From the NCBI GenBank assembly GCA_033193195.1, contig GCA_033193195.1_4326.1: a DNA stretch of 45,624 nucleotides. One strand, written 5' to 3'. Source of the DNA: a phage. A program made the translations under genes and the position numbers. Shown piece by piece: positions 11,897 to 40,160 of this stretch; position 1 is the first letter of the stretch, and every line of letters starts with the position of its first letter. The notes beneath the pieces were generated by a model. That model was not told where the DNA came from, searched no databases, and saw only the letters and a list, made by a program, of their open reading frames with translations.

Positions 11897-11941
11897 ACTA
11901 TACAGCAATCCGCGATTTGGTCTTTAACAAAAAGTGCTATC
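11897..11941 (-). promoter_or_regulatory. family promoter for 11615..11863
   Basis: minus-strand GATAGCACTTTTTGTTAAAGAC, TATAGT -10, CATCGAAACGAAA leader. Confidence 0.55.
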
Positions 11942-11971: not shown

Positions 11972-12631
11972 TTATGCCAGTTCAGAAGCTACAGAACTCA
12001 ACCTACCACGGATAGATACCGCGATGGATACCGTTTCGATTTCGTTAACACCAATGCTTGGGGTGTCGTTGAAAGCGATAGTGCCAGACTGGAGACGCAT
12101 CTCTCTAGCTCGAGGTACGAACAGACGAATAGCAACAGTAGTACCAGTTTCGTCATAGTTACGCAGAATCGGATATATCGGGTTGGTGTATTCGTGCGCA
12201 AACGTGTAGGTGTTGGTTACCGCAGACTTATAAGTTGGAATCTGCTGCTCACGTTCATCAGATAAACACTGGAAGTTAACGAACTGCTGTTCGCCGCCAT
12301 CAGTGGATACGTCCTGAACACAAGGAACTTCAAACCAAGTAAGAATCTTAACAACTTCACCAGTTAAGCCAGCTGGGAACTTAGTGGTGTTGGAGGTATC
12401 AATACCTTCAACAGTTACGGTTGAACCAGATACCTCGGTAACGCGAACTTGCTTATCAGCCAGCAGGGTCGAAGCTGAGCTGGTAAATAGCAGGTAATCA
12501 CCGCGTGCAATATCAGCAACGCTGGACAAAGTTAAAACAGGAGTAACAGCATTGGAAATTGCAGTTACGTCAATAGTAGCTCCCCTGGAGCCTTCTACGA
12601 AGACCTGAGTGCCATTACTAAGATGGGCCAT
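11972..12631 (-). CDS. major tail protein
   Basis: 219 aa immediately upstream of G/G-T chaperones, followed by strong terminator. Confidence 0.65.
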   Translation of the reverse strand: MAHLSNGTQVFVEGSRGATIDVTAISNAVTPVLTLSSVADIARGDYLLFTSSASTLLADKQVRVTEVSGSTVTVEGIDTSNTTKFPAGLTGEVVKILTWFEVPCVQDVSTDGGEQQFVNFQCLSDEREQQIPTYKSAVTNTYTFAHEYTNPIYPILRNYDETGTTVAIRLFVPRAREMRLQSGTIAFNDTPSIGVNEIETVSIAVSIRGRLSSVASELA

Positions 12632-19779: not shown

Positions 19780-19825
19780 ACTATAATCCATCCTTGGCGG
19801 AGTGTCTTTAGCAAAACGTGCTATT
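19780..19825 (-). promoter_or_regulatory. family promoter for 19397..19750
   Basis: minus-strand AATAGCACGTTTTGCTAAAGAC, TATAGT -10 22 nt downstream. Confidence 0.55.
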
Positions 19826-21440
19826 TGATGCCAGCGAGGCGCATCATCCTCGATTTAGGGTCTTCTGCAATGTTCAGTACCAGGTTGACAGCCATTGTCA
19901 AACAGTCTATCTGGTCATCGTGAACATGTGAATCATCTGCCGTGAATGCCGCAATCTCCGTTAGCAAGCCATTAAGCCAAGTAGCAGACTCCGGAAGGAT
20001 TACGTTACCAGCTTTAATCTGCGGTAATGCACTCATTACGCGAGTCAGCTTATCGTTATCTGGCACGTACGGCTCGATAGGCGTTCGCATAACCCTTCCG
20101 GCTGATTGAATCAGGCCAATACCAGAGGCTTTCTTCTCGATGATGATTTTACGAAGGATGCCATCTATCTGATTGGATGCCCTAGCCATCTTCTCGAAAT
20201 CCAATAACTCAGCCTCGAGCTCAGGAGCTTCAAATTTACCGCGTCGCTGGTCAAGCAGATAAATCTTCCCATCCTTATAACCCCATAGCTGCATGACGCT
20301 AAAGTCGCTGTAACTTTTGGTTGTCATCGCAGTATCAAGGACCATAAACCTGTAATCGTACTTAGCTGGCGGTCGCAGAGTGTCGCTAATGCGTTGAAGC
20401 CAGTCTACGTTAATCAGGTTGCCGCCAAGTGCTACTGGTTCTTGCTGATACTGGCTAAGGAATGTATAGCTATCAGAATCCCACATTGCAATTAGGTCGT
20501 GAACAGATTCCTTGCCAGGGAAATAGCTATAGTACCTAACACCATCACGCTCAATATATTCGCTTGATAGAACGTCATCAATGAATTGCTGCTTAATCCA
20601 GTCAGGAAGCGTGTCGACGTAATCCTCAGTTACGAGCGCCGGTATCTTAATCAAGTCGAAGCTAATACCCATACCGCCATTCATCATGAACCACGTACTA
20701 TCGTTCACATGAAGGCGCTGTTGGATAGAGATAATCGGCGTCGCCTTGCCTTTTACCGAGCTAGCCCTACGAGAACGTATGGTGTTCTTTAGCATCACAT
20801 GGTTGTTGGCACGGAATACAGCCGAAAGCATATCTGCAGGTTTGTCAAAATCATCTAACAGTACCGCACCACTATACGAATCGGTTATATATCCACCCCT
20901 TGCGCCTGTAATTTGGCCGCCAGTGGCTTTAGAGATTGACTCAAACCTGACCTTGCCATAGTCATCCAGGACCTGTAGCTCATCATCCTTACACGTACCA
21001 AACTTACATGGGAACAACTCCTGGAACTCAACAGACTTAATTAAGTCGCGCACACGCTTGGAGTTACGCTTAACCAGTGAGTCAGCATACGATATATTCA
21101 GGTTCCTTACCTTTCTCAACTTAACCATTGAGTAGGCTGGGAAGTGAATTGAGGCTATCTCTGTTTTTCCGCTACCTGGTGCTATGTTAATGATAGTGTC
21201 CTTGCGCTCACCTGCTATAATCTCGTCAATGATTCTGCAAAGGTATTTATGATGCCAGTTTGGGATGTACCGCTCTCCCTGAGTTAGCTGGAACCACACC
21301 CGCAAGAATCCCTCGAAGCTATGAGTGGATATCGCCTTAACCGCCATCTTTTCTGCTGGCGTCATTTCCTCCCAAACTAAATTAGCCATAATTTCACCAA
21401 TCCAACCATCACGCCAATTAAGAATCCAGTTGTGAAGCAT
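19821..21440 (-). CDS. terminase large subunit
   Basis: P-loop IAPGSGKT, C-terminal nuclease-like acidic residues, 539 aa. Confidence 0.85.
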   Translation of the reverse strand: MLHNWILNWRDGWIGEIMANLVWEEMTPAEKMAVKAISTHSFEGFLRVWFQLTQGERYIPNWHHKYLCRIIDEIIAGERKDTIINIAPGSGKTEIASIHFPAYSMVKLRKVRNLNISYADSLVKRNSKRVRDLIKSVEFQELFPCKFGTCKDDELQVLDDYGKVRFESISKATGGQITGARGGYITDSYSGAVLLDDFDKPADMLSAVFRANNHVMLKNTIRSRRASSVKGKATPIISIQQRLHVNDSTWFMMNGGMGISFDLIKIPALVTEDYVDTLPDWIKQQFIDDVLSSEYIERDGVRYYSYFPGKESVHDLIAMWDSDSYTFLSQYQQEPVALGGNLINVDWLQRISDTLRPPAKYDYRFMVLDTAMTTKSYSDFSVMQLWGYKDGKIYLLDQRRGKFEAPELEAELLDFEKMARASNQIDGILRKIIIEKKASGIGLIQSAGRVMRTPIEPYVPDNDKLTRVMSALPQIKAGNVILPESATWLNGLLTEIAAFTADDSHVHDDQIDCLTMAVNLVLNIAEDPKSRMMRLAGIK

Positions 21441-23482: not shown

Positions 23483-23528
23483 ATTATATGGCATCCATGC
23501 CTTTGGTGTTTAGCTATTCGTGCTGTTT
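23483..23528 (-). promoter_or_regulatory. family promoter for 23217..23453
   Basis: minus-strand AACAGCACGAATAGCTAAACAC, palindrome GGCATGGATGCC in spacer, TATAAT -10. Confidence 0.55.
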
Positions 23529-23975
23529 ATTTTATCTTCACGCTCCTTCCATAGATTCATCAGCTCGAAGTACATCATGGCAACCTCGCCAGTCTTAGCC
23601 TCATCCATCATCCGTTTAGCCCACTGGCTTTGTGTTTCGTAGTTATCCATTAGTAAACAAGAGCCTCGTGGTTTGCTATGTAAAGCTCCTCATCGTGCTT
23701 GTTTTTAATGAAGTACCCATTGCCATCTTCGCTAGGCTATGCATAGAATACGTCGCCATGCTTTAAGCGCGCCATATAATCATCCTGGCCAATGTATACG
23801 ATCTTAATCATGCAATCACCTCACTTAAATTATAGTTCGTTAGAATCGCTTTTAGCGTCATCTACGGCTGCTGAAATCATGTAAATAATCATGAAGCCCA
23901 AATGACCAGAGTAACTATGGCAATGCTTCAACCAGAACTTCATCCATCATTAACCCAGTATTCATTTCTCTATCC

Positions 23976-24620: not shown

Positions 24621-24664
24621 GTATAACAACCTATCCCAATTCATGTTTAGCAAAAAGTGCTATT
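24621..24664 (-). promoter_or_regulatory. family promoter for 24409..24588
   Basis: minus-strand AATAGCACTTTTTGCTAAACAT, TTATAC -10-like. Confidence 0.5.
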
Positions 24665-24764: not shown

Positions 24765-25286
24765 CTATTTAGTCTCCTTAATCATTTCCTGGTATGCGTT
24801 AATCATTGATACTGCACCCTTAAGTTCATCACCTTCAAGACCAGCGACGCTTGGTGATAGTTTCAACAATCGAGCCTTGAACCTTTCAATGGTAGCCGCC
24901 TCCCTCTCTTGCTCTGCTTTGCTTCTTGAGCCGGATTTTACAGCGCCAGGAACCAGGCTAAGTGATGCGCAGTATGTCTCACTCTCGCCCTCAAAGTCGG
25001 TAAAACTAAGTGAGAACCTTGAGCGCACGTCAGCCGCCTTAATCTCAGGCATTCGGCTTACGGTGTTTGAAACGTATGACGCTTTTAGTTTTGGCATGTG
25101 GTATTCACCACCAGGTAGAACCTCCTCACCACTTAGCGATACGAACGTCTCACGACTCATGCCGAAGTATTGACGAGCAATCATGGTCACAGGGACTGTG
25201 CACACTTTGTCTTCTGACTTGAGCGCCTGACTCGCCATGTATCGAATGATTTCACCCAAACTTACTGCTTCTTTATGTTCTGACAT
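24765..25286 (-). CDS. hypothetical protein, first gene of leftward unit from control region A
   Basis: 173 aa ORF; sigma70-like TTGATA-N16-TACCAT upstream. Confidence 0.5.
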   Translation of the reverse strand: MSEHKEAVSLGEIIRYMASQALKSEDKVCTVPVTMIARQYFGMSRETFVSLSGEEVLPGGEYHMPKLKASYVSNTVSRMPEIKAADVRSRFSLSFTDFEGESETYCASLSLVPGAVKSGSRSKAEQEREAATIERFKARLLKLSPSVAGLEGDELKGAVSMINAYQEMIKETK

Positions 25287-25886: not shown

Positions 25887-25932
25887 AATAGCACTTTTTG
25901 CTAAAGACATTTAGGTATTGCGGAGTTATAGT
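25887..25932 (+). promoter_or_regulatory. family promoter for rightward early unit
   Basis: AATAGCACTTTTTGCTAAAGAC, TATAGT 25927..25932. Confidence 0.55.
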
Positions 25933-26505: not shown

Positions 26506-26705
26506 AACTATTATGCACTAACATAATTAAAGACTTTAACGATGCCTTCAATAAGGGTTCTGAATACAACGCTACCGAGTTTAAAAATAATATGCGCCTT
26601 GTTACCGGCGAACGTCCACACAAGCATCACAACACGTTCCATGCGCTTAAATGCCTTGATTACGTAATCATCCACGGCATCGCAACTTTCAAGGTGATTG
26701 AATAA
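26502..26705 (+). CDS. hypothetical protein
   Basis: 67 aa, ATGA overlap with upstream gene. Confidence 0.5.
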   Translation: MKLLCTNIIKDFNDAFNKGSEYNATEFKNNMRLVTGERPHKHHNTFHALKCLDYVIIHGIATFKVIE

Positions 26706-26869
26706 TGCTTTTACCATCTGAGATAAACTATTTCGATCTGGAAGTCATAAGTGCTTACAGCGGAAAGGGTTGGCCTTGCGGGGACTGGTTTAACGAGGAC
26801 CTGCTTGAGTCTCACGAGATTATGTTGAAGGCAATTGAGAAGGCCAGAAAAAATAGCACTAATTGCTAA
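26705..26869 (+). CDS. small hypothetical protein ending inside promoter element (..KNSTNC)
   Basis: TAATG overlap start; stop TAA is part of AATAGCACTAATTGCTAA. Confidence 0.4.
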   Translation: MLLPSEINYFDLEVISAYSGKGWPCGDWFNEDLLESHEIMLKAIEKARKNSTNC

Positions 26870-26896
26870 AACTCACCGCCACTGATGGCGTATATT
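26852..26896 (+). promoter_or_regulatory. family promoter
   Basis: AATAGCACTAATTGCTAAAAC, TATATT 26891..26896, leader CATCGAAACGAAAGAGAG. Confidence 0.55.
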
Positions 26897-26928
26897 TACT
26901 CCATCGAAACGAAAGAGAGCAAGAGATC

Positions 26929-27090
26929 ATGTTCGACAACTTTTATGACGAGATGGAAGAGGCGGTTCTCAGGGCGTCGCTAGATGGTAAGATTTACGGT
27001 TTAGTTCAGAAGTTTGATAAGATTGTTGTGCGTATTGTGCGCAAATCAGTACCAAACAAATTCATGTTGACAACTAAGAGATTAAAATAA
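26929..27090 (+). CDS. small hypothetical protein
   Basis: ATG 26929 downstream of predicted start site; track start 26863 lies inside the promoter. Confidence 0.45.
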   Translation: MFDNFYDEMEEAVLRASLDGKIYGLVQKFDKIVVRIVRKSVPNKFMLTTKRLK

Positions 27091-27479
27091 TGACTACTAC
27101 GATAACCAAAAATTTCATTAGCAACGACAACAAGCTATTTAAAGCTCGCGTTAAAAAGATTCACCAGTGGGTTAACGGTGTCGCTGAGGAAGTTGAATTT
27201 GAGCAAATCAAAAAAGACGGCAAATGGATCAACCTGGAAGAACGTGGAAAATACATTAAAACCAAAACTCTTTACTGCACAAAGGTTAACCATAAGTCTG
27301 GCGTTAAGAAAGACTTCAAAGAAGGTAAGCGATACCAGGTCAACATGCATAGCGGACTTGGTCAGTCAGCTGGATACATTTACGATGAAGATGGCAACGC
27401 CTGGCAGCTATATCGCAGCGAATATGTTGGCTTTTATACGTTGTGTGAAACTTACCACTTTGAGGCTCAATACAAATGA
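27090..27479 (+). CDS. hypothetical protein
   Basis: 129 aa ORF. Confidence 0.5.
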   Translation: MTTTITKNFISNDNKLFKARVKKIHQWVNGVAEEVEFEQIKKDGKWINLEERGKYIKTKTLYCTKVNHKSGVKKDFKEGKRYQVNMHSGLGQSAGYIYDEDGNAWQLYRSEYVGFYTLCETYHFEAQYK

Positions 27480-27646
27480 AATTATACATTGTAAGTGGTT
27501 GCACACACTATGATGGAAGCGAAGTGATTGCCGCTTTCGATGAAGAATTCAAAGCACAGGAGTTTAAATATAACAAAGAAATATCTTCAGAAAATCACTT
27601 TGACTACTACAAGATAGATTGCATCTTACTAAATAGCACTAATTGA
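27476..27646 (+). CDS. small hypothetical protein ending inside promoter element (..LNSTN)
   Basis: ATGA overlap start; 56 aa; stop TGA within AATAGCACTAATTGA. Confidence 0.35.
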   Translation: MKLYIVSGCTHYDGSEVIAAFDEEFKAQEFKYNKEISSENHFDYYKIDCILLNSTN

Positions 27647-27676
27647 TAATGCATTATAAGCGGCTATTGATATAAT
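27632..27676 (+). promoter_or_regulatory. family promoter for 27706 gene
   Basis: AATAGCACTAATTGATAATG, TATAAT 27671..27676. Confidence 0.55.
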
Positions 27677-27705
27677 GGCCGCTCAGAACAACACGGAGAG
27701 AAGTA

Positions 27706-29289
27706 ATGTTTGATTTCAACGAAGATAAACTATCTGTTGAGCAGGTTATGGCAATCGCTGCCAATGAAAACCTACCACCGCTTCGCGTGGCTATTAATGC
27801 CAATGGCTATCGACATTCTCAATCGTTCTGGAAAGCACCTGTCGAGATTGATACAGGTAATGATAAGTATCCAGTAATCTCACTCGGTAATGATATTGAT
27901 GTTGTTGGTAAGCTATCGGCTAATATCGCTCGCTCGGTTCAGTTCCCTGAGTCGTCAGCTTACATGCACTTTCTTGGTTGTGTTTCTGCTGCAATGCTTG
28001 GGCGTTTTACTGTCGAGTATCATGGAACCCAACAGCCAACATCTTTGTACGTGGTAACAAGTCAGCCGCCTTCAACTGGTAAATCAGCCATTAACTCGCT
28101 ATCAATTGCGCCGATGATTGCTGAGACTGAGCGGTTGAATAAAGTACGTAAACGTGATCGAAAAAAGATTATTGCTAAACTGTCCGCTCTGGCTAAAGAG
28201 ATGAAGCAGGAGAAATCACCTTCTGAAATGGCTTCACTTTTTGAGGAGAAGGAGGATTTAGAGGAGAAGCTCGAGAAGCTATGCGATATAGTATTCCCTG
28301 TCTCCGATACTACTCCGGAAGGTCTTGCGCGAATCAACAATCGCCAGGGTAATTTTGCGGTAATCTCTGATGAGGCTACTAGCGTCAACTCACTGTTAGG
28401 CATGACTTACGGTGATGGCTCGAAGAAAACGAACAGCGAGCTCGTGCTGAAAGCATGGGATGCAGGTAATGTGTCAATTGCCCGTGCGAACGCAGAAAAT
28501 AACATGAGCTTTGTGGCTATGGGATGCATCTCCGTAATTGCTCAGGATGAAACAATCAATGCCATTATGAATGCTGGTGCGCGTGGTATTGGTGTATCTG
28601 AGCGTTTCCTTCTGGTGCGTGAAAAATCATTTCTTGGCGAACGTGTATTTGTTGATGAAAATGGTGATTCAACCTATGAGGCTATTGATGACGGCCTGAA
28701 AGCAGACTATTTCCGTCTTGTTCATGAGATTATGAATGAAGTTGAAGTGAAACTTACTGTAAGCGCGTCATCAATGCGTTACCTTAACCGCGCTCGTCAA
28801 GAGATGGAGCCTCATCTTGGTGATGGTGGCAAGTATTCTCACACAATGTTGCGCGGTGCTCTTGGTAAGTTTGATAAGCAAGCAATCCGCATCGCTTCTG
28901 TTCTGCACGTAATTCGTAACTGGTTCTCACCAGCCGGATCCAGCCCTCAAAAGTCAAGAGAGATTGAACTGGATACAATGCAGGAAGCGGTTATGATTTT
29001 CAACGAACTAAGCAAGACTTATTTATCATCCGCTAGTGCTGCTGGTCATGCTGGTGACAATGCCGAGATGAACAAGCTGGTTGATATCCTGATTAAGCAG
29101 GGCAAGAATGGTAAAGGTGTTGTTGGTGTTCGCTCGTTGTATGAGGCTGCACGCAAGGTTAAACCTTTTGAAGCTCAGGCTGGAATTATGACTCGCATTA
29201 AGGACCACTTGATTCCTATGCTTGATGAGAAAAACTACACATGCCTGATTGGTGATAAAATTTACATTAATCCACTATTGCTGGGGTAA
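27706..29289 (+). CDS. P-loop NTPase, possibly replication-associated
   Basis: QPPSTGKS Walker A-like motif, 527 aa. Confidence 0.5.
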   Translation: MFDFNEDKLSVEQVMAIAANENLPPLRVAINANGYRHSQSFWKAPVEIDTGNDKYPVISLGNDIDVVGKLSANIARSVQFPESSAYMHFLGCVSAAMLGRFTVEYHGTQQPTSLYVVTSQPPSTGKSAINSLSIAPMIAETERLNKVRKRDRKKIIAKLSALAKEMKQEKSPSEMASLFEEKEDLEEKLEKLCDIVFPVSDTTPEGLARINNRQGNFAVISDEATSVNSLLGMTYGDGSKKTNSELVLKAWDAGNVSIARANAENNMSFVAMGCISVIAQDETINAIMNAGARGIGVSERFLLVREKSFLGERVFVDENGDSTYEAIDDGLKADYFRLVHEIMNEVEVKLTVSASSMRYLNRARQEMEPHLGDGGKYSHTMLRGALGKFDKQAIRIASVLHVIRNWFSPAGSSPQKSREIELDTMQEAVMIFNELSKTYLSSASAAGHAGDNAEMNKLVDILIKQGKNGKGVVGVRSLYEAARKVKPFEAQAGIMTRIKDHLIPMLDEKNYTCLIGDKIYINPLLLG

Positions 29290-29292
29290 TTT

Positions 29293-29628
29293 ATGTACCT
29301 GCTCGACCTGTATAATTTCTGCGAAGGATACAAGAACTTCAACCGCCAGCACCTGGCAAGATTCATCTATAAGCACAAGGATTGCGCAAGGATGGCCAAG
29401 GCTGCCGGGGTTGATGAAAGGTATTTTGCCTCAAGTTGCTCGAAGGAGTTTATGGCGAGAATGCTTACGGCTGGGTATCTTGATGGAGTTAATGGAGTGT
29501 ACTGGTGTAAGGGTTCAATTAAGCGACCATTTCAGTTTGAATTCATGAGCCTTGAAGGTAGGTCCAGTGATTACGTCAGTGAGATGATGAACATAGCCAA
29601 CATGAGTGATGACGAATTGTTTGCATAA
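29293..29628 (+). CDS. hypothetical protein
   Basis: 111 aa ORF. Confidence 0.5.
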   Translation: MYLLDLYNFCEGYKNFNRQHLARFIYKHKDCARMAKAAGVDERYFASSCSKEFMARMLTAGYLDGVNGVYWCKGSIKRPFQFEFMSLEGRSSDYVSEMMNIANMSDDELFA

Positions 29629-29632
29629 AAAT

Positions 29633-29660
29633 AGCCCCATTACGGGGCTTTTTTGTTTTT
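29633..29660. terminator. bidirectional terminator between convergent units
   Basis: AGCCCC-ATTA-CGGGGCT followed by T6GT5. Confidence 0.65.
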
Positions 29661-30026
29661 CCTGAATATCATTAAGAGCAGAATGATGATGACGCAAAAC
29701 ATGATTCCACTCCCAATCCACGGGATTGCAGACGAATCATTGTTGGTGATTTCAATCTTCTCAGCCGTGATTGTTGATGCCTTGATTGAGTTATCAGAAG
29801 TCTTTTTACCGCTTGAACTATCAAGAGTGTCAACCTTAGAGTTCTTCACTTCAGCCTTTGCGCTGGAACTTGAATCAACCTTATTAGTTAGCCCTACTCC
29901 AACCTTGTTATTCTCCGCACCTGCTTGAGCGCTAATCTCTGGCTTACTACCAATCAACCCGGTCAGCGCATGAGTTGCCGAGCAACCAGAAAGTATAATT
30001 ACCTCAGCAATTAACGCAGCCTTCAT
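29640..30026 (-). CDS. candidate unimolecular spanin (lipoprotein signal + C-terminal TMD)
   Basis: N-term lipobox ILSGC, C-term hydrophobic IPWIGSGIMFCVIIILLLMIF, adjacent to endolysin. Confidence 0.55.
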   Translation of the reverse strand: MKAALIAEVIILSGCSATHALTGLIGSKPEISAQAGAENNKVGVGLTNKVDSSSSAKAEVKNSKVDTLDSSSGKKTSDNSIKASTITAEKIEITNNDSSAIPWIGSGIMFCVIIILLLMIFRKNKKAP

Positions 30027-30508
30027 TTACCCACCCCACTTAAGCATAATTTAATCTCCTCGTTGCGCCTGTTAACTAGACCTTTAACAACTTTTAGCTT
30101 GCCATTTACTCGAGCTTTATTCCAGGAGGCGAGAGCATTACAACCCTCTTCAATCTTGCCCTGATTAATCAGCCTTACTGCCGTTGACTTCCTCATTGCA
30201 GCGCCACCAACGTTGTAGCTAAAGCTGATTAACGCCGCCCTTGTCTGTGGAGAGATTGGGTAAGTTACTGCATCCTGCACATACTTTCCATGAATCTGGA
30301 TGTGTTTCTCCAGTAAGTTCCTGCACTCCCTTGCACTGTACTTTTTACCCCACACCACATCAGGACCAGTGATACCTGAACAAACCGTAGGAATGCCTGA
30401 AATGTCCATGTAAGGCTTGTATTCCACACCTTCTACTAGCTCAATAATCGGCGCTGCGATGTATATTGCTGCTGCCGTCGCTGCACTAATTACCAGCTTC
30501 TGCTTCAT
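30023..30508 (-). CDS. endolysin, lysozyme-like with N-terminal SAR-type segment
   Basis: weakly hydrophobic Ala/Gly-rich N-term; E-x8-D-x5-T catalytic spacing. Confidence 0.75.
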   Translation of the reverse strand: MKQKLVISAATAAAIYIAAPIIELVEGVEYKPYMDISGIPTVCSGITGPDVVWGKKYSARECRNLLEKHIQIHGKYVQDAVTYPISPQTRAALISFSYNVGGAAMRKSTAVRLINQGKIEEGCNALASWNKARVNGKLKVVKGLVNRRNEEIKLCLSGVGK

Positions 30509-30723
30509 TACTTACTCCTAATATTGATAGCTGTTTTTAAATCTCCTGACTCTAGCGCTTTCCTGATTGCCTGACTGTCCTTAAACTTCCAATATGCTCC
30601 CCACAGCCCGAAAACAACAAGAGCCACAAGGCTGATTATTGCTATAGTCATTTGACCAGTTGCGGCACCAGTTACAGCGGCTCCGCCGGTTGATGCCGTG
30701 GCGGCGTTAATTACTTCCCTCAT
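30508..30723 (-). CDS. holin candidate
   Basis: 71 aa from ATG 30723 with GGTGA SD; one strong TMD; TAATG overlap with endolysin. Confidence 0.55.
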   Translation of the reverse strand: MREVINAATASTGGAAVTGAATGQMTIAIISLVALVVFGLWGAYWKFKDSQAIRKALESGDLKTAINIRSK

Positions 30724-30796
30724 GTGATCACCTTTAAATCCTAATTTGTCAATACATAGTGCAAATATCATACATTAGGCGGTGGCAAATTATAAG

Positions 30797-30824
30797 CAAA
30801 AAAAGGGGAGCCAAAAGGCCCCCC
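30797..30824 (-). terminator. hairpin plus T-run
   Basis: GGGGGGCC-TTTT-GGCTCCCC then T7 on minus strand. Confidence 0.5.
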
Positions 30825-30850
30825 GCATGCAAATCTATGTTTTTGATGTG

Positions 30851-31024
30851 TTAATCTTCGATAATAAATTCCACCAAAGAGCCATCAATCGGCGCAAGGA
30901 TGTGAGTCATATCGTCACCGTAAACTTTGTAGTAACCGTCACCTAGAGACTCTGCGCTGTACGGCTGGTTTTCGGTGAACGGCAGTGTCTTTGAGTTGTT
31001 TTTAACGCAGTATAATTTAGTCAT
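30851..31024 (-). CDS. small hypothetical protein (57 aa, not in track)
   Basis: ATG 31024 after GAGGA; family promoter upstream. Confidence 0.4.
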   Translation of the reverse strand: MTKLYCVKNNSKTLPFTENQPYSAESLGDGYYKVYGDDMTHILAPIDGSLVEFIIED

Positions 31025-31055
31025 TTTTGAATCCTCTGTTGTTTTCGATGTAGTA

Positions 31056-31100
31056 ATTATGCCGGATTACTCCGGCGATTGTTTAGCAATTCGTGCTATT
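31056..31100 (-). promoter_or_regulatory. family promoter overlapping 3' end of dNMP kinase gene
   Basis: minus-strand AATAGCACGAATTGCTAAACAA, CATAAT, leader CATCGAAAACAAC. Confidence 0.5.
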
Positions 31101-31637
31101 GATTGCACTAATTACTTTTTCTGAAGTTCTTTTAATATCACCTTCAATAACATCAACATCAATCTCTCTTGCGCAGACGCAACTAAGGTATGACCTACTA
31201 TCTCCTTCGAAAGTATAACCAGGTCTGTGAAGCCTAATCAATGTAACCTCAACACCGTTGCCAATCAGTGGTTCGATTTCACTCGCAAATCCACCGTCTG
31301 AACAAATGTAGCATCCATCACCAAGTGATTGCGCTAGCCTTTTACCGAAAACATCATCACCAAAGACTGGCTTCATAACTGACTCACTAATCCAAATCAT
31401 AAATTCACGAACCGTCATTCCACCAAGAAATTCATGTGGTGATTCTTTGTACTCTCGGTCATCGTAATTCTTAATAAATTCATCAAACTCATCGCTTGAT
31501 AGTATTCCTTTTGCAACATTAAACATTGGTGACTTGAATGAAACCTTATCCTTGCAAATTCCAAGATTAACAATGATATCTGCAACTGTATCTTTTCCAG
31601 CACCAGGGGGTGCATTAAGGATGATTAACTTTTTCAT
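31083..31637 (-). CDS. deoxynucleoside monophosphate kinase-like P-loop kinase
   Basis: ILNAPPGAGKDT Walker A; start 31637 with GGAGA; ends ..NSTNC inside promoter element. Confidence 0.5.
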   Translation of the reverse strand: MKKLIILNAPPGAGKDTVADIIVNLGICKDKVSFKSPMFNVAKGILSSDEFDEFIKNYDDREYKESPHEFLGGMTVREFMIWISESVMKPVFGDDVFGKRLAQSLGDGCYICSDGGFASEIEPLIGNGVEVTLIRLHRPGYTFEGDSRSYLSCVCAREIDVDVIEGDIKRTSEKVISAINSTNC

Positions 31638-31638
31638 T

Positions 31639-32112
31639 TTATTCTCCGTGAGATTCGCAGTCCTTTGGTAATTCTTTATATTCACAAACTGACATTACAG
31701 TATATCCGCAATTCCTTAGGTGACTGATAACATTAGGATTATCCTCAAAGATTATCACACTTGCTTTGTCACCATTACACAAATCATTTAGCCACATCTC
31801 TTTAATGATATAGTCATTTCTGTTATCCAATCTACTCCTCATATATATTCCATCATAATTAATATTATTATACTGAAGCCATTCAAGCGTCATACATTCG
31901 ACTTCGTCACTTCTTGAAGTCATGATGTAAACTGGCGATAACTCAGCTAACGCATTCATCATGTTTATCATTGGAATTATCGGTGAATCTCCAGAACAGG
32001 CTCTATTGTAATCACTCCAACTTGAAGTCAAGTGAAGGTCACTAGATGGTAATAGGTGGCTTCTATGTTCATTGTTAGCAATAGTTCCATCAATATCAAA
32101 CACGTAAATCAT
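31639..32112 (-). CDS. HAD-family 5'(3')-deoxyribonucleotidase-like
   Basis: N-terminal FDIDGTI (DxDGT) motif. Confidence 0.55.
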   Translation of the reverse strand: MIYVFDIDGTIANNEHRSHLLPSSDLHLTSSWSDYNRACSGDSPIIPMINMMNALAELSPVYIMTSRSDEVECMTLEWLQYNNINYDGIYMRSRLDNRNDYIIKEMWLNDLCNGDKASVIIFEDNPNVISHLRNCGYTVMSVCEYKELPKDCESHGE

Positions 32113-32167
32113 TACAACTCCCCATCTCGTTATCGTTTATTCATTTGGCCTCAATCCTTTGAGGCTT

Positions 32168-32187
32168 TATTAACAAAAAGTGCTATT
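32168..32187 (-). promoter_or_regulatory. family upstream element (no clear -10)
   Basis: minus-strand AATAGCACTTTTTGTTAATAA then hairpin GCCTCAAAGGATTGAGGC. Confidence 0.4.
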
Positions 32188-33319
32188 ACTTAAACATTTC
32201 AGGTCGGCAAGTGAATCGACCAACTTCACCGTACTCTGAGCTATAGATAATTACTGAGGCCTGACGATAAGAGCGATACCCTCTGTTTGAGCTGTACGCA
32301 TCTTTAGCACCCAACTGACCGTGTGACTCATCAATTCCAAGATTACCCTCAGTAACCGTCTGATGATGATAATGGCCACTATGTGTATAAACGTATTCAG
32401 CATTACCAAATGCTTTGCGATGGTCGCGCGCAAGAGTTGAAAGACGAGTGTCAGGCTTTCGCAATTCATGACCATGGCAGTAACCCAACAATGTTTTACC
32501 AAACTCCGTCACGTGAAGAGCGGCTGGTGAGACATCAACATTTACACGAGGCTCATCCATGTAGAAGGCAGCCATTGCAGCTCGAAGCCAAATCATCCCA
32601 GAAAGGTCGTGGTTGCCTGGTATAATCTGAACCTCAACCTCTTTATGCTTGTCAAGCATCTTACTGACGGCGCGGCGAGTTGCACGAACAGCTACGTAGA
32701 CAAGTTTATGATAACGGCTATCTTGATCAAGTACGTGCTTGCTGGTTGGAGTTACAGCTTCCATTCCATCCGAGTGAAGGAAGTCTCCACCAATCAGTAA
32801 TACGGCTTTTGATGAATTCGGGGCCTTAGCAACTGCATAATCAAAGTATTGGTTAAGCACTCGCTCTGCAATTTCTGTACTGTAGTTCTCCCCACACTCT
32901 GCATGGTGAGCCATTGCGCCAATATGCATATCAAACACGGGGTAGAGGCTCAAGGTGTCCTCATAGCTTGATTCACTGAGTGGTTTCGGAGTCTCTCGAG
33001 GGAGCTCATCTGTAAGCGCCTGAACAATCTGCTGAAGCATCTCTTCTTGTTTCTGTTCGTCGATGGAAGTTTTAACCCAGCGCAGCTTCTCATTACCATC
33101 CGCATCAATCATTGTTGAAGTGCCTTTAACAAGATAGCCATCAGGAACTAGCTTCTTGATGCCTTCATTACCATGCCCAACCCCACTCTTAGCCAACTTG
33201 CTACGACGAAGCTCAACGTTTCGAATGTTCATTCCGTACTTCTCTGCAATCGCCTTGTTAGTCAGGCCGTTTTTCAGTTCTTCGATCAACTGCTCGTTGG
33301 TAATCTTTGCTGCTGCCAT
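32186..33319 (-). CDS. metallophosphoesterase with N-terminal HTH-like segment
   Basis: GDFLHSDG and GNHD motifs typical of calcineurin-like phosphoesterases. Confidence 0.5.
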   Translation of the reverse strand: MAAAKITNEQLIEELKNGLTNKAIAEKYGMNIRNVELRRSKLAKSGVGHGNEGIKKLVPDGYLVKGTSTMIDADGNEKLRWVKTSIDEQKQEEMLQQIVQALTDELPRETPKPLSESSYEDTLSLYPVFDMHIGAMAHHAECGENYSTEIAERVLNQYFDYAVAKAPNSSKAVLLIGGDFLHSDGMEAVTPTSKHVLDQDSRYHKLVYVAVRATRRAVSKMLDKHKEVEVQIIPGNHDLSGMIWLRAAMAAFYMDEPRVNVDVSPAALHVTEFGKTLLGYCHGHELRKPDTRLSTLARDHRKAFGNAEYVYTHSGHYHHQTVTEGNLGIDESHGQLGAKDAYSSNRGYRSYRQASVIIYSSEYGEVGRFTCRPEMFK

Positions 33320-33400: not shown

Positions 33401-33652
33401 TCATTCAACCTCTTTTAACCAGAAATCCAACAAATCAGCACTAATTGCTAATTTTTGGTCCATGTCTGTCATGCACAGATTACCGCACGCTGGAGAGTAG
33501 TAAATCTGTACCCATTTACCGTCCTTCGTCTTCGCGTTAACATCCACATAGTCAGGTGGAAACCAGTCATCAATAGGTATCGCTATAAACCTGGCTCCGC
33601 TACTACCATGCACTAAATCATAATGCTTTGGCTGGAAATCTAATCCAAACAT
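33401..33652 (-). CDS. hypothetical protein
   Basis: 83 aa ORF. Confidence 0.4.
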   Translation of the reverse strand: MFGLDFQPKHYDLVHGSSGARFIAIPIDDWFPPDYVDVNAKTKDGKWVQIYYSPACGNLCMTDMDQKLAISADLLDFWLKEVE

Positions 33653-34478: not shown

Positions 34479-34525
34479 ATAATACACCAACTCACCAATT
34501 CGTCTTTAGCAATTCGTGCTATTTT
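34479..34525 (-). promoter_or_regulatory. family promoter for 34246..34440
   Basis: minus-strand AATAGCACGAATTGCTAAAGAC, TATTAT, CATCGAAACGAAACACAC. Confidence 0.6.
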
Positions 34526-34938
34526 CTTATCATCTCTGCGAATGCCGCAAGAAAACCCTCTCTTCCATAAGCAACCGCTGCGAAACCGCCTGATTCCCTT
34601 ACGCTTTTTAGGAATGACTTTTGCTCATTGCTAACTGGGCTTGCTTGCGTTTTGCCAGCCCTCTTTAACTCTATGGCGCCAAATGGATAACCGCCACGCA
34701 ATGACTCAGGTATCAAGAATAAGCAGTCTGAAACACCTTTAAGGAGGCCCTTAGCCTGGTCTTTCCTTGCCTGGCCAATGCTCTTTTTATTTTCGTTAAT
34801 CGTGTGCCAGTAAACAATCTGCGGATAGTTGTATTTCACCCAGTCAGAGCAAAATATTTGTTCGTCATCTTCCTTTGGGCATGACTTTACAGGGCCGCCG
34901 TAGAACTCGATGTAATCAATTTTGTCTGTAATTTTCAT
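34519..34938 (-). CDS. VRR-NUC-like PD-(D/E)xK nuclease
   Basis: D..LFLIPE..GAIELK motif pattern; stop TAG lies inside promoter element. Confidence 0.5.
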   Translation of the reverse strand: MKITDKIDYIEFYGGPVKSCPKEDDEQIFCSDWVKYNYPQIVYWHTINENKKSIGQARKDQAKGLLKGVSDCLFLIPESLRGGYPFGAIELKRAGKTQASPVSNEQKSFLKSVRESGGFAAVAYGREGFLAAFAEMIRK

Positions 34939-34939
34939 G

Positions 34940-36649
34940 TTAATCCTCCATCGTGAATGATTTGTTGGCGATAATGTCTTGAGACTTCTGGTTTTTACGG
35001 TGTGTGATTCTCAATGGGGCACGGAATAGATGTGCATTTGTCATAATCATTCTAGCATTACGCAATCTGCCAATTCTGAATGCCTCAGTCCTGTTATCGA
35101 TGTGTGTTAAGCAGAAAGCCTTCCATTTAACAGAGCAAACGCGATGGTCTGATTCAGGGAAGAATGTTTCATAAGCTCGGAACTTATCTCCACTATGAGC
35201 CATTACCTCATATGAAGCAACGATCCCTGACTGGTTCTTTGTTAACCCAATCTTGAAGTCATAAACTCGCAACCAGTCCCCCTTACGATACATTTTTCCT
35301 GATAACTTAGCATTCGGGTCTATGAGCATCTCACCACAGCATCTGCAATTCTTAGCTGCAATATCATTCTTCTCACCGCATCCTTTCTTAATGATAGCTT
35401 TGGTCTGTGGGTCCACTATATCTTCACACAGTCTAAACTGAAAGAAGTGCTCACAGCGCTTCCCGTCAATTACGTTATTGCAGCGCCTGGCTAATGGAGA
35501 GTTCACATAAGAGCATGCCTGACAGATTCTTGGCTCACCAACACGCTTTCTTGCTGACCTAAATTTCTGGTCTTGTACCTCTTCTATAATTGGGTCGAAG
35601 TAAAGTTCAGCCATATCATCAAGCGTTCCAGCAAAATCAAGAACAACATGGTCATCTTTTACCATTCCAGCTTCTTTGTGCTTCTTCTTAAGGATACGCA
35701 TACCACGACCAAGCAACTGAATGAGTAGAGTAATGCTACCAACCTTCCTCAGGATAATGCTTGTATCCCACGGGGGGCAGTTTACGCCAGTTGTGAGGCA
35801 ACCAATCTGAAATATGAACTTATATTCTCCGTTGGCTGCCTTCTCAAGTATCTCTCTACGCTTATTCTCACCAGTGGAGTTGGTAACTATCGCCCAAGTA
35901 ACACCTTCTGGAAGTGCGGCTGCCGCCTCCTCGCAATGCTGTTTGCTAGCGCAAGTTACCAATGCAGCATTCCTTGTTTCCATAAACCTAGCAGCAAATC
36001 CCATTATCTTTTGTGTCATCGTTTGGTTTTCGTGAATCTTTGCAGCCATCGCATCCATTTCTTTCTTGCTGAAGTCCTTAACCCCATCACTTCCATCAGG
36101 AGTGAACTCACTAAGGTCGTAGCCCAAATCACCAACTTCACCGTAGACAGTAGGAACAACGAACCCCAAGTCAACAAGGTAGCTGGTTGGCACTTGCATT
36201 ACAGTTTTGCGCCAGAATCCACGGACATTTGGGTTACTAACTACAATGTGGTCGTTGTTACGGTACGGGCTACCAGTTAACCCAAAGATACGAAGTTCGC
36301 GACCGTACTTCTCCTTGCATCGACGCTTCATTTCGGTAATGATTAACGTGTATTGCGCGCGACCAGTGCCAAGAAGCCCGGTATTCACACCATCCTTAAA
36401 GACCATCTCACCCTTCTTCGTGCTCATCTGCTCGAATGTTTCCTCATTCTCTTCAGCTTCTACGATATCCATATGGTCCACCATGTGGCAATTATGTGCC
36501 ACGACCCCGTCAGCAATGAAATTATGGTGCTCAGGCATCTCTATATCCCAAACAAGTTCCTTGCCAATGGGTGAGATGTCTTTAATTTTGCTTGATTTTG
36601 TATTCCACGCCATTTTACATGTGCTTACTAATTCTCTTAAAAAACTCAT
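34940..36649 (-). CDS. SF2 helicase C-terminal fragment preceded by intein C-terminal splicing segment
   Basis: N-term ..ELVWDIEMPEHHNFIADGVVAHN then CHMVDH; helicase motifs LTGSP and QLLGRGMR; C-terminal Cys-rich zinc-finger-like region; ATG 36649 with GAGG upstream. Confidence 0.75.
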   Translation of the reverse strand: MSFLRELVSTCKMAWNTKSSKIKDISPIGKELVWDIEMPEHHNFIADGVVAHNCHMVDHMDIVEAEENEETFEQMSTKKGEMVFKDGVNTGLLGTGRAQYTLIITEMKRRCKEKYGRELRIFGLTGSPYRNNDHIVVSNPNVRGFWRKTVMQVPTSYLVDLGFVVPTVYGEVGDLGYDLSEFTPDGSDGVKDFSKKEMDAMAAKIHENQTMTQKIMGFAARFMETRNAALVTCASKQHCEEAAAALPEGVTWAIVTNSTGENKRREILEKAANGEYKFIFQIGCLTTGVNCPPWDTSIILRKVGSITLLIQLLGRGMRILKKKHKEAGMVKDDHVVLDFAGTLDDMAELYFDPIIEEVQDQKFRSARKRVGEPRICQACSYVNSPLARRCNNVIDGKRCEHFFQFRLCEDIVDPQTKAIIKKGCGEKNDIAAKNCRCCGEMLIDPNAKLSGKMYRKGDWLRVYDFKIGLTKNQSGIVASYEVMAHSGDKFRAYETFFPESDHRVCSVKWKAFCLTHIDNRTEAFRIGRLRNARMIMTNAHLFRAPLRITHRKNQKSQDIIANKSFTMED

Positions 36650-37629
36650 CTTGTGCCGACCTCGTTGTTATTGATACTGAGTAAAGCTCTCTCTTTTTCT
36701 TGCCGCAAATATAGCTTATAACCTTAACTCCGTCATTAGCAATAAATGCTATTAGCGCATCAACTACTGATTGAACTTCACGCCTGCTAAATGATTCGGT
36801 GTGGATTTCTACAACCCTCCCCCCTGAGCTTACAGTGCAATGACCATCATCACCAAAGTAAGCAGCCCAACCAACTGGATCAAGCTCTCTGCATATCTTT
36901 CCAATATCGTAACCATCCTTAGAATTTCCGTACTTATCAGCATATGAATCCAGAACTTTCGTACATGATGTTGATACGCAAAACCAGTTGTCGCCAAATC
37001 CAGGGTTTTTCTTCTCCCTGTATCTAGGGTTTAGTTTTGCAAACCTTTCAACCTTGCTTAGTGCGTGCTCCTTATTTCCATATTCCAAGATAGCCTATGC
37101 GTTCCTTTTTCTGTATTTTTAATCAAGCAACCATCACCAGCCATTGCCGCAAGAATGTTTTGATGTAAAAAGTCATCAACCTCCATTTATGGGTTGACGG
37201 TTGAATTATGATGCCCCGTTCTGTAATCCAAATAGAAATCGAAAGGGTTCTTAAGAAGTACGCCTAACCCCTTGCTTGAATGCGGCATAACTTTTTCACC
37301 ACAGCCACACTTGCACGCAGAAGCTTTTTCGTAAATTTGTCCTGCGAGCCGTCTAGCGACAGATTCATCCCAATACGAAGTTTTCCCGCTTCTACCCAGC
37401 AGCCGTTCGAATAAAGTTTGTGTGTACTCGTGCATTTTATTTCCTCTCCGCTTTCTAATTTAATTGATAATACATGTCTTACACCATTAGTAAAAACTCT
37501 TTTTGGCTTATGATAGAAGTAATCACCAGTGCTTTCGTTTATGCATTTTATTTTATGATTGATAAGGTCTTCGCTATCAATCCTCATCATCCCTGAATCG
37601 GTGGTTATCATCGTGTCTCCAGTTAAGCA
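36491..37629 (-). other. intein inserted in helicase DECH motif; LAGLIDADG endonuclease core disrupted
   Basis: blocks CLTGDTMITT and CTSTHKL..W in N-extein frame; ILAAMAGDGC and WAAYFGDDGHC in two other frames; in-frame TAA 37187..37189; length 1139 bp is not a multiple of 3. Confidence 0.7.
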
Positions 37630-38073
37630 CTCATCTATCGCGATAACAGCAGGAGCATAGTCACCAAGCCCCTTAAACAAGCCGTTAGCAGCCGTTCCCT
37701 CACTAGCCACTATGGTTGGATAGTAAACTGATTTAACGTTAAGGCCAGCGCAATAGACGCTATTACGGATGCCGAAATTACGAAGTTCCTCTGCGTTCTG
37801 GCTGATAATCTCTGACTGGCGAGATAGGACCATGTAAGGAAGGCCAAGCTGTTCCATTCGTTTCCCAATCATGGCGAGTATAATTGTCTTACCAGCAGAC
37901 ACCGACAGGTCTGCGATGAATGGCGCTTCGTACTTGCCAATAGCCTTACCGATTGCGTCAAATGTCACGCACTGGAATTCGTAAGGCGTTATGTCTCCAA
38001 ACTGGTAATCTTTCTGAATCTGTTTAATTTTCTCTTTATCAAAGTTCGCCACTAAGCGCTCTACTGGAAGCAT
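37264..38073 (-). CDS. SF2 helicase N-terminal fragment fused to intein N-terminal splicing segment
   Basis: Walker A SVSAGKT, ..VIAIDE then CLTGDTMITT; stops 121 codons into intein. Confidence 0.75.
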   Translation of the reverse strand: MLPVERLVANFDKEKIKQIQKDYQFGDITPYEFQCVTFDAIGKAIGKYEAPFIADLSVSAGKTIILAMIGKRMEQLGLPYMVLSRQSEIISQNAEELRNFGIRNSVYCAGLNVKSVYYPTIVASEGTAANGLFKGLGDYAPAVIAIDECLTGDTMITTDSGMMRIDSEDLINHKIKCINESTGDYFYHKPKRVFTNGVRHVLSIKLESGEEIKCTSTHKLYSNGCWVEAGKLRIGMNLSLDGSQDKFTKKLLRASVAVVKKLCRIQARG

Positions 38074-38112: not shown

Positions 38113-38158
38113 GTATAATAACAATTATCGAACCTATTGTTTAACAAAAAATGCTATT
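38113..38158 (-). promoter_or_regulatory. family promoter for helicase N-fragment gene
   Basis: minus-strand AATAGCATTTTTTGTTAAACAAT, TTATAC/TATTAT -10-like. Confidence 0.5.
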
Positions 38159-38169
38159 GAGGTAATGAG

Positions 38170-38643
38170 ATGTGTGAAATTGACAAGCGAACTATCAACG
38201 GCAATAACGGAACCATCCGCACGCAAGACAAGAAACAGCGCAAACGACCGTCAGGCTACTACGTATTGAAAGATGAAGTAAAGGCTGGGCTACGAGCTCG
38301 TCTGGAGATGGTTCTTGATTTCTACGGCACGAAGGCCAATATCGCCAAGCAGTTAAATGTATCTCACCAGACTGTAGAGCAATGGTTTGATCGCGGGATG
38401 ATTTCGGCTAGAGGTGCCCAGAGGGCTCACAATGCATACAAGCGAAATAAGGAAGGCTTTAGAGCTACGTTCTGCCGACCAGACCTGCAATTCGACGGAA
38501 ACGGTAAGCCATTAACGCTTAGATGCAAGAAACGCCATATGCTGCGGGTTGTTACCGAAGCTGAACTAGCAACAAAGCCACCATGTCGACCATGGCGCAA
38601 GAATAAGATTGCCAACGAAGCAGCACGAAAAGCTAAAGATTAA
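38170..38643 (+). CDS. HTH DNA-binding protein, candidate transcription regulator
   Basis: GTKANIAKQLNVSHQTVEQWFDRG helix-turn-helix-like segment; GAGGTAA SD. Confidence 0.55.
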   Translation: MCEIDKRTINGNNGTIRTQDKKQRKRPSGYYVLKDEVKAGLRARLEMVLDFYGTKANIAKQLNVSHQTVEQWFDRGMISARGAQRAHNAYKRNKEGFRATFCRPDLQFDGNGKPLTLRCKKRHMLRVVTEAELATKPPCRPWRKNKIANEAARKAKD

Positions 38644-40137: not shown

Positions 40138-40160
40138 AATTTTAGCAATTCGTGCTATTT
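40138..40160. promoter_or_regulatory. orphan copy of family element in opposite orientation to the downstream gene
   Basis: TTTAGCAATTCGTGCTATTTT with no consensus -10 in either direction. Confidence 0.4.

Follow-up and report, generated by a model that had tools for sequence, protein, structure and literature searches.

In T1-like phages, genes commonly run into a short repeated element and stop there, at stop codons that the element itself holds. We examined this element in a 45,624-nucleotide stretch of phage DNA (NCBI GenBank assembly GCA_033193195.1, contig GCA_033193195.1_4326.1), called here the window, where the copy at 26852..26869 is one of 17. The element is the direct repeat (DR) already described for these phages; the overlap of stop codons with it is real, highly non-random and general to the T1-like phages. 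The reading that we favour, and consider probable, is that the DR belongs to a promoter cassette that lacks a -35 element, and that this upstream element doubles as a backstop stop codon for the preceding gene and as a junction between gene modules. The stop overlap is an example of genome compaction and not a new system. The advance is modest and consists of the stop overlap in a known repeat, the repeat's fixed geometry relative to a -10 hexamer, and its role at module junctions.

The motif, AATAGCAC-NNN-TTGNTAA, occurs 17 times in the window, and 15 of these copies (the promoter-type copies) lie exactly 21 nucleotides (nt) upstream of a TATAAT-like hexamer that is accompanied by a conserved CATCGAAAC leader. 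A search with AATAGCACKAATTGCTAA gave 15 matches at no more than three mismatches, against 0.15 expected. With at most two substitutions, the general pattern ATAGCACNNNTTGNTAA gave 17 copies against 1.4 in shuffled sequences, the two additions being 11924-11941 and 38141-38158, both on the minus strand. Fifteen of the 17 copies point the same way as the downstream gene. The repeat has an invariant core, AGCAC/TTG; conservation across copies is 98-100% at positions 4-5 and 17-18, whether these serve as stops or not, and position 15 is C in 65%, T in 29% and A in 4%.

The window 18-mer is the core of the 21-nt DR, aaATAGCACnnnTTGnTAAAA, of T1-like phages. In a reannotation of phage TLS (Phage 2024;5:173, PMC11447400) this repeat was designated DR1-DR18, with 21 copies that are oriented with transcription and lie ~76 nt ahead of start codons, and it was also reported from T1, Rtp and Rogue1. 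The same study found almost no sigma-70 promoters in TLS, called the DRs intergenic and posed their function as an open question, for which a stoperator-like, enhancer-binding or UP-like role was proposed. Sequence, copy number (17 in the window, 21 in TLS), orientation and distance to the start codon all agree between the two phages, which belong to the same family. What does not hold is the term intergenic: nine of the 15 promoter-type window copies overlap the stop of a coding sequence (CDS), one more lies inside an open reading frame (ORF), and in TLS itself 14 annotated stops overlap a DR copy. This is a correction to the published description and no ground against counting the window element as a DR. 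The text and supplement of PMC11447400 are silent on stop codons in the repeat and on any overlap, and we found nothing there on the constant 21 nt to the -10, the missing -35, the tails that the motif encodes or mosaic junctions that coincide with the repeat; the genome papers of T1 (Virology 2004) and Rtp (J Bacteriol 2006) might mention the overlap. Within the literature on Dhillonvirus, Drexlerviridae or T1-like promoters and start sites, we found the motif described only in the TLS paper.

The window is the genome of a T1-like coliphage, a siphovirus of the Braunvirinae (Drexlerviridae). It is ~90% identical to Escherichia phage ES (Drexlerviridae, Braunvirinae) over ~42 kb, ~84% identical to TR2 (Christensenvirus) and ~75% identical to Rtp, and its T1-like gene order is that of Rtp and T1. 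One ORF and one promoter cassette run across the window end into position 1, so that the window is a complete, circularly permuted genome.

Nine conserved window genes end in or at the repeat. Frame 1 of the motif reads AAT AGC ACK AAT TGC TAA, and five genes end in this frame at TAA or TGA with NSTN(C/R/S) tails; the other four end at the TAG of positions 3-5 or immediately ahead of it. One further ORF passes through the repeat in its only open frame. The ten copies are as follows.

697..714, plus strand: the DNA methyltransferase-like ORF 214..714 ends ..ANSTNR, with its TAA at 712-714.
19808..19825, minus strand: the large terminase (TerL) gene 19821..21440 (minus) stops at the motif TAG (19823-19821), its terminal lysine coming from aAA.
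23510..23527, minus strand: variant AACAGCACGAATAGCTAA; the 46-residue gene 23510..23650 (phrog_1312) ends ..INSTNS.
26852..26869, plus strand: the 54-residue gene 26705..26869 (phrog_4548) ends in frame 1 with ..KNSTNC, TAA at 26867-26869.
27632..27649, plus strand: variant ..TTGATAA; the 56-residue ORF 27476..27646 ends ..LNSTN at a TGA (motif positions 13-15); putative promoter of the helicase gene 27706..29289.
31083..31100, minus strand: the dNMP kinase gene 31083..31685 ends ..INSTNC; downstream boundary of a pnk plus dNMP kinase cassette.
32170..32187, minus strand: the DNA repair exonuclease gene 32186..33319 ends at a TAA, motif bases 1-2 forming part of this stop, with the motif TAG directly after it; upstream boundary of the same cassette.
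34506..34523, minus strand: the VRR-NUC-type gene 34519..34938 stops at the motif TAG.
43925..43942, minus strand: the exonuclease VIII (RecE-like) gene 43938..44909 stops at the motif TAG.
36736..36753, minus strand: entirely inside the ORF 36615..37088 (LAGLIDADG_2-like), which passes through in frame 2, the only stop-free frame; followed by TATATT and then ATG 36649 of the C-terminal half of a helicase.

All nine ORFs match PHROG families (methyltransferase, phrog_1312, phrog_4548, phrog_3002, dNMP kinase, VRR-NUC-type phrog_824, DNA repair exonuclease, exonuclease VIII and TerL), with profile matches that stop short of the motif-encoded tails; the repeat-terminated ORFs are real genes. An earlier note on this DNA had listed the five frame-1 ends together with those at 34519, 32186 and 43938, every one of them correctly, and the terminase is an additional motif-TAG stop absent from its list. 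It was also right that the element holds stops in two frames (TAG and TAA, with frame 2 open) and that the shared NSTNx C-termini are translated motif. The packing, which it had called unusually tight, is indeed very tight and the NSTNx ends are real; they are, however, a trait of the family and not peculiar to this genome, and the element had already been published.

The same overlap is observed in independently published reference annotations, those of T1 (Tunavirinae), Rtp (Braunvirinae) and TLS (Tempevirinae), where 39 of 238 CDS stops overlap a motif copy against ~1.06 expected under random placement. Counted by repeat, 39 of the 55 promoter-type copies in these three genomes hold the upstream CDS stop: 20 at the TAG of positions 3-5, eight at the TAA of positions 16-18, nine at the 5' edge and two elsewhere inside. 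As many as 20 of their 31 TAG stops are the motif's own TAG. A protein-seeded locus search gave seven close relatives, and a larger family sample came from a DNA-pattern scan of IMG/VR, which gave 400 distinct promoter-type contexts that are not phylogenetically independent. The upstream stop overlaps the motif in 297 of the 400 (74%), and its positions were as follows.

TAG at motif positions 3-5: 170 of 400.
TAA at motif positions 16-18: 46 of 400.
Motif edge, using bases 1-2: 62 of 400 (34 + 28).
Elsewhere inside the motif: 19 of 400.
Abutting, 0-9 nt upstream: 10 of 400.
More than 10 nt upstream: 61 of 400.
ORF reading through the motif: 13 of 400.
No upstream ORF of at least 40 residues: 19 of 400.

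When the upstream proteins were clustered, 101 of 140 clusters ended in or at the motif. Their junction states numbered 80 in frame 3, 24 in frame 1 and 22 in frame 2 (all with their own TA/A or T/AA at the edge), and 10 more read through; 25 clusters showed more than one junction phase. The NSTNx mode is thus a minority across the family, the usual one being AAA-TAG with a single terminal lysine.

Aligned copies share a fixed order downstream of the motif: 21 variable nt, the TATAAT-like hexamer, ~6 nt, CATCGAAAC, a purine-rich Shine-Dalgarno leader and the start codon, with 74-86 nt from motif start to start codon in the window. The 21-nt spacing to the -10 is found in nearly all copies of the window, T1, Rtp and TLS. 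The consensus of 361 distinct contexts has G at -14, TATAAT and CAtcgAAAc; the -10 element is often (G)nTATAAT, with a purine 7 nt later in CATCGAAAC. The cassette of the copy at 26852 continues as follows.

26870..26931, plus strand: GC hairpin at 26877-26890, -10-like TATATT at 26891-26896 and ATG of the next gene at 26929 (to 27090).

Its predicted start is the A at 26903, within CATCGAAACGAAAGAGAG. No -35-like hexamer lies 16-18 nt from the -10 in the cassettes, where a generic scan gave only weak TAAACA or AAGACA matches. The TTGCTA of the repeat was rejected as a -35, the spacer to the -10 being 22 nt in every copy; an extended -10 (TG 3 nt ahead of the hexamer) was rejected as only the G at -14 is conserved. 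MerR-like twisting of the spacer, or its shortening by a cruciform, was dropped because spacers differ between copies and the arithmetic misses a 17-bp spacing. An Rfam search of the cassettes gave no family match and only a tRNA; the tRNA gene is at 22575-22647 on the minus strand (RF00005, 58.9 bits), and TR2 has an annotated tRNA-Arg(CCT) at the equivalent place.

That genes end in the promoter of the next gene, as the earlier note had it, is borne out as far as anatomy goes, with a fixed 21 nt to the hexamer, a leader and a start codon; the word promoter is drawn from this geometry. The DR would be a promoter part, with transcription probably starting ~7 nt after the hexamer. At divergent regions without an upstream gene, DR cassettes are the only promoter-like elements (25887, 38141 and 45572 in the window, 48752 in T1 and 49783 in TLS). 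The seven copies besides the ten above, five of promoter type and two without -10 or leader, are these.

11924..11941, minus strand: in the tail-gene region; a major-tail-type ORF, 11972..12631, ends 31 nt earlier after a T-run, without overlap; the Rtp equivalent is at 16302.
24647..24664, minus strand: promoter type; no overlap, the stop of the upstream gene 24765..25286 being 101 nt away.
25887..25904, plus strand: first promoter-type copy of the rightward early gene block, without a credible upstream gene; corresponds to the right end of the Rtp genome.
38141..38158, minus strand: AATAGCATTTTTTGTTAA; first promoter-type copy at a divergent region, ahead of a helicase gene and 12 nt from the divergent start codon of the gene 38170..38643; the arrangement recurs in T1 (36443), Rtp (35293) and TLS (35842).
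45572..45589, plus strand: variant copy in a divergent region; putative first promoter and upstream boundary of the methyltransferase cassette, which crosses the window end into position 1.
40142..40159, minus strand: perfect and inverted copy ahead of the tail-fibre gene, without -10 or leader.
33434..33451, plus strand: degenerate copy ATCAGCACTAATTGCTAA, antisense to the surrounding minus-strand genes, with neither -10 nor leader; perhaps a relic or a chance match, or else a binding site that stands alone.

With a start 7 nt after the hexamer, the motif would span -51 to -34, and a partial dyad within it, TAGCA-N5-TGCTA, would be centred at about -42. Class II activators bind at this distance, among them lambda cI at OR2 of PRM (centred at about -42) and CRP (at -41.5). 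The DR would then lie where such an activator sits, and its most likely action is to bring in host sigma-70 RNA polymerase by way of a DNA-binding factor, for which there is one candidate.

38170..38643, plus strand: helix-turn-helix (HTH) protein gene, phrog_2856 'transcriptional regulator'; homologue of T1 gp23 and Rtp52, with sub-threshold Cro/CI-type Pfam hits.

A DR copy starts 10-12 nt from the start codon of this regulator in the window, T1, Rtp and TLS. Between the primase terminator and the tail-fibre gene, the inverted perfect copy at 40142..40159 follows an extended -10 (TGgTAGAAT, 40128-40136) and takes up roughly +1 to +18 of that promoter, a placement that is conserved across subfamilies, recurring in T1 (~34901, TGaTAAAAT) and Rtp (~33761, TGcTACAAT). 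Ahead of the major head gene, T1 and TLS have a canonical sigma-70 promoter (TTGACG-N16-TATTAT and TTGAAC-N16-TATATT) whose 16-nt spacer, with part of the -10, is an inverted copy (15070-15087 in T1, 15026-15043 in TLS); no equivalent of these was found in the window. Such placements suggest a single factor that would activate from -42 and repress from +1.

The 21-nt spacer usually forms a GC hairpin, with a mean minimum free energy of -10.8 against -4.7 for shuffled sequences and -5.7 for random genomic 40-mers (mean z -2.9). These hairpins vary in sequence and fill the spacer or enclose the -10 (for example 26877-26890, 31060-31077 and 32146-32163); that of the 26852 cassette was flagged as terminator-like by a simple scan, with the -10 doubling as its T-rich tail. 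We regard the spacer hairpins as candidate 3'-end stabilisers, attenuators or promoter-related elements. Their presence raises an alternative in which coupling is at the level of RNA, the DR and hairpin acting as a 3'-end, attenuator or processing signal in read-through transcripts and the position of the stop controlling folding, so that the overlap would itself be functional. The region from spacer to -10 is far more structured than controls, and three such hairpins are annotated as rho-independent terminators in the T1 record. Hairpin strength is also greater at DRs that hold a gene end (-13.0, -12.1 and -10.3) than at those with no upstream gene or an earlier gene end (-7.1 and -9.7; p = 0.0008, ignoring kinship), and the stem begins a median of 8 nt after the DR in frame 1 against 4 nt in frame 3 (p = 0.001, ignoring kinship). 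A 5-bp RNA stem, UAGCA...UGCUA, is possible within the repeat, in which either C or T at position 15 could still pair with G; yet this position is sometimes A, which breaks the pair, the stem is weak and its arms are nearly invariant. The 8 nt that follow the hairpin stems hold no more than 1.2-2.2 T, so that most of the hairpins are not canonical terminators. First promoters that have no transcription upstream carry the same DR, and the strict 21-nt spacing to the -10 hexamer is a property of DNA. On balance we consider such coupling improbable as the explanation of the overlap.

Relatives of the window often diverge at the repeat. When the window was aligned by blastn with ES, TR2, Rtp, T1 and TLS, 19 of 160 internal ends of high-scoring segment pairs (HSPs) fell at or in the motif, against 1.5 for random placement (maximum 7 in 2000 trials), and one alignment with Rtp runs exactly from DR copy to DR copy (27632..31100). 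Two accessory cassettes, that of the methyltransferase (45590..end plus 1..696) and that of pnk and dNMP kinase (31101..32169), each lie between two DR copies; at the corresponding place Rtp or ES has only one, and the flanks on either side are homologous. Both close with frame-1 tails, core genes having mostly the TAG junction, an anecdotal difference. The methyltransferase-like gene itself has ATG 25 (MVVWSLFDGSG...), an in-frame amber TAG at 91-93 and then an open frame to 714. Possible readings are a pseudogene, an amber allele, an error in sequencing or a shorter product made from an internal start.

Recombination within the DR may have produced these junctions, and one could go further and see the DR mainly as a target of recombination or homing, a cassette attachment sequence for RecE/Erf or for HNH or LAGLIDADG endonucleases, to which the promoter surroundings and stops would be secondary. 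Besides the breakpoints and the flanked cassettes, this alternative draws on the free-standing HNH genes that often come directly after a DR cassette (Rtp20, Rtp40, T1 ST15) and on the window copy within a LAGLIDADG-like ORF. It does not, however, need the constant distance to -10 and leader or the orientation with transcription, no DR-specific recombinase or endonuclease was identified, and copies at orthologous junctions persist over three subfamilies (the VRR-NUC and TerL junctions), which argues for a standing function rather than insertion scars. We hold it to be quite improbable. The HNH genes next to repeat cassettes are at Rtp 6315/6388 and 21392/21464 and at T1 41955/42028 and 46159, and the T1 HNH gene ST8 reads through a repeat copy in which TAA is changed to AAA; the mobility of homing endonucleases may be linked to DR cassettes.

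Orthologues show directly that the tails follow the repeat. The 46-residue protein ends ..INSTNS in the window and ES, ..EREKK in Rtp and ..KSRGL in TLS, the last two without a motif after the gene. TerL ends ..AGIK or ..AGMK at the motif TAG in the window, ES and Rtp, and ..KR in T1 and TLS, where no motif is present. The dNMP kinase has ..INSTNC in the window against ..INK in T1 and ..FLK in TLS, both at the motif TAG, and the methyltransferase ..ANSTNR in the window against ..ANQK in TLS at the motif TAG. For the exonuclease the junction slides by 1-3 nt, giving ..PEMFK, ..PKMFS, ..PEMF or ..PEMIA; the stop of exonuclease VIII in Rtp and TLS is TA/A at the motif edge, one phase off that of the window. 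Other junctions are stable: phrog_4548 orthologues in Rtp and ES end ..ARNSTNC with the same motif, and the AAA-TAG junction of the VRR-NUC-type gene is kept in the window, ES, Rtp, T1 and TLS and in 23 of 23 cluster members. Since a tail depends on whether the motif is there and in which phase, and orthologues with no motif lack it, the motif dictates the tail and not the reverse.

This is the co-variation of tail and promoter element for which the earlier note had proposed to compare related genomes. Its further suggestion, that part of the element is under coding as well as regulatory constraint, holds at most for stop triplets that do double duty. Positions 4-5 and 17-18 keep their conservation even though only 170 and 46 of the 400 contexts use the TAG and TAA as stops; the constraint is therefore one-directional, and the amino-acid tail looks unconstrained. 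Frame 3 adds one residue to the upstream protein, frame 1 five and frame 2 ten or more, and the order of preference, frame 3 over frame 1 over frame 2, agrees with a weak selective cost of longer tails.

In the tails, DR sequence is passively translated; they are not functional peptides. An NSTNC peptide acting, for example, as a degradation or sorting tag, with the repeat conserved for encoding it, might have been suspected from a tail common to five unrelated window proteins and to ~19-24 unrelated clusters across the family, and from motif positions 3, 9 and 15, which vary synonymously in frame 1 (not significant, there being six such positions). Frame 1, however, is used at 46 of 400 copies and frame 3 at 170; copies also occur inverted and without an upstream ORF; orthologues of one protein bear ..K, NSTNC or no tail interchangeably; and family profile matches end before the tail. 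The distribution over frames and the comparison of orthologues effectively refute a functional peptide. The three positions just named are the most variable of the core and the third codon positions of frame 1, where the common variants are synonymous (AAT/AAC, ACG/ACT/ACA, TGC/TGT); with ~12% of repeat copies translated in that frame, this synonymy is probably a coincidence. Finally, the notion that spurious open frames merely appear to stop in a motif where two of three frames necessarily do so has a negligible chance of being right, given the family matches of all nine window ORFs, the 39 CDS ends that independent annotations place in the motif against ~1 expected, and the frame-2 genes which, though offered no motif stop, still end exactly at its edge (34 + 28 cases).

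We return to the promoter cassette that also ends genes and joins modules. In the mechanism that we propose, the DR would be the upstream part of an intergenic cassette of ~75 nt, made up of DR, 21-nt spacer or hairpin, -10, start site, short leader and ATG. Intergenic DNA in these phages is essentially this cassette alone, itself overlapped by genes; with no DNA to spare, upstream genes would be pushed against the DR and use the stops in its core, TAG (3-5) and TAA (16-18), which lie in two different frames. Arrival in frame 3 would give a terminal lysine (aAA TAG) and in frame 1 the sequence N-S-T-(N/F)-(C/R/S), and genes in frame 2 would end at the DR edge with their own TA/A or T/AA. Promoter-gene-DR units would be gained, lost and swapped between DR copies, repeatedly creating new fusions of gene to DR in arbitrary phase. 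Compaction and modular exchange both fit the finding of genes that abut the motif.

Several points weigh against this proposal. A generic sigma-70 scan found 47 sites against 39.8 +/- 6.3 in shuffled sequences, with no enrichment in the region, and a terminator scan behaved likewise. The promoter assignment and the -42 geometry are read from sequence, and the dyad is imperfect (C, T or A at position 15), which weakens the case for a symmetric dimer site. Because the DR forms an island of conservation where genes meet, HSP ends there are partly expected under any gene-level mosaicism. Kinship among the IMG/VR contexts affects the counts, a problem that clustering lessens and does not remove, and the excess of frame 3 may have another cause, such as ribosome-to-hairpin spacing.

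A broader proposal, which we put forward tentatively and think less likely than not to be correct in full, would make the DR cassette a family-wide adaptor for gene cassettes. It would close the upstream ORF by a stop in either of two frames or at the edge in the third, supply a 3' hairpin, and drive the next ORF from an activator-dependent promoter; homologous DR-DR exchange would carry promoter-gene-DR units within and between T1-like phages, and a single HTH protein would serve as activator at about -42 and as repressor at about +1. If true, the cassette would be a functional analogue of T4 promoter-early stem-loop (PeSL) elements or integron cassettes, and the published question on the role of the DR would be answered. 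The narrower proposal already offers a concrete hypothesis for that question, namely a promoter without -35, a site at about -42 and a candidate HTH factor. For the literature, the correction is that the DR is not simply intergenic, about three-quarters of promoter-type copies holding the upstream stop. It explains oddities in the annotation of T1-like phages, such as ..NSTNC or ..K ends on unrelated proteins and the amber stops, 20 of 31 in T1, Rtp and TLS together, that are the TAG of the DR. In annotation, a DR copy can flag a gene end together with the next putative promoter and so aid the calling of small ORFs. In engineering, the DR offers a natural cassette boundary, and edits to the 3' ends of these genes would also strike the promoter element of the neighbour.

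A separate observation concerns the helicase gene downstream of the 38141 copy (homologue of Rtp53 and T1 gp22; 34940-38073, minus strand), which is split by a 1.15-kb insertion at ~36481-37627 that is present in ES and absent from Rtp and TR2. The N-terminal half (38073..37264) runs into sequence like an intein N-block (CLTGDTMI...; Pfam Intein_splicing positions 17-88), and the C-terminal half (36649..34940) opens with an intein C-block (...ADGVVAHN/C; Intein_splicing positions 117-155). The stretch between them holds a 42-residue ORF, whose ILAAMAGDGCL resembles a LAGLIDADG motif, and a 157-residue ORF in another frame that matches LAGLIDADG_2. The region has the look of a 'fractured gene', a split intein accompanied by a homing endonuclease that is free-standing and apparently frameshifted, on Pfam matches that all fall just below the curated cut-offs; no group I intron was found in the split helicase.

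Among known regulatory elements, the DR cassette resembles the class II activator promoters in its poor or absent -35, its good, partly extended -10 and its partly dyad site at about -42 from the predicted start. It differs in its imperfect dyad and in that the same site is also found at about +1 in the tail-fibre promoter and, in T1 and TLS, within the spacer and -10 of the promoter ahead of the major head gene, which would be repressing positions; start and activator are both putative. UP elements are A/T-rich sequences at -40 to -60 that are the target of the C-terminal domain of the RNA polymerase alpha subunit and work only upstream of a promoter. The DR overlaps their position, yet its invariant core and the perfect copies at about +1 are hard to explain in this way. 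The L5 stoperators, as cited in PMC11447400, are repressor-binding sites of a temperate mycobacteriophage that block elongation and silence transcription in lysogens. The DR is like them in being a short asymmetric intergenic site with many oriented copies in one phage, and unlike them in occurring in virulent phages, no integrase or immunity repressor having turned up among the annotated relatives, and in being locked to a -10 and leader at a fixed distance, which points to initiation rather than a block to elongation.

The closest parallel is with the PeSL cassettes of T4-type myoviruses, which mediate modular shuffling, are associated with mini-circle formation and consist of canonical strong sigma-70 promoters with proven terminators (PMC2839356, PMC4122927). 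In both systems a small composite cassette of promoter (putative for the DR) and stem-loop is repeated between mostly accessory genes, indel and replacement junctions of related phages fall at the cassettes, and there are genes with a copy on either side. Stable hairpins are present in the DR cassettes, with few T after the stems. The DR cassette differs in having no -35 and a hairpin that lies within the spacer or around the -10, mostly without a U-tract, in its sequence, and in its setting, a T1-like siphovirus as against the hyperplastic regions of T4-like myoviruses. We know of no PeSL that supplies the stop codon of the upstream gene. By this analogy, the DR cassette appears to work most like a PeSL, and yet it is not one.

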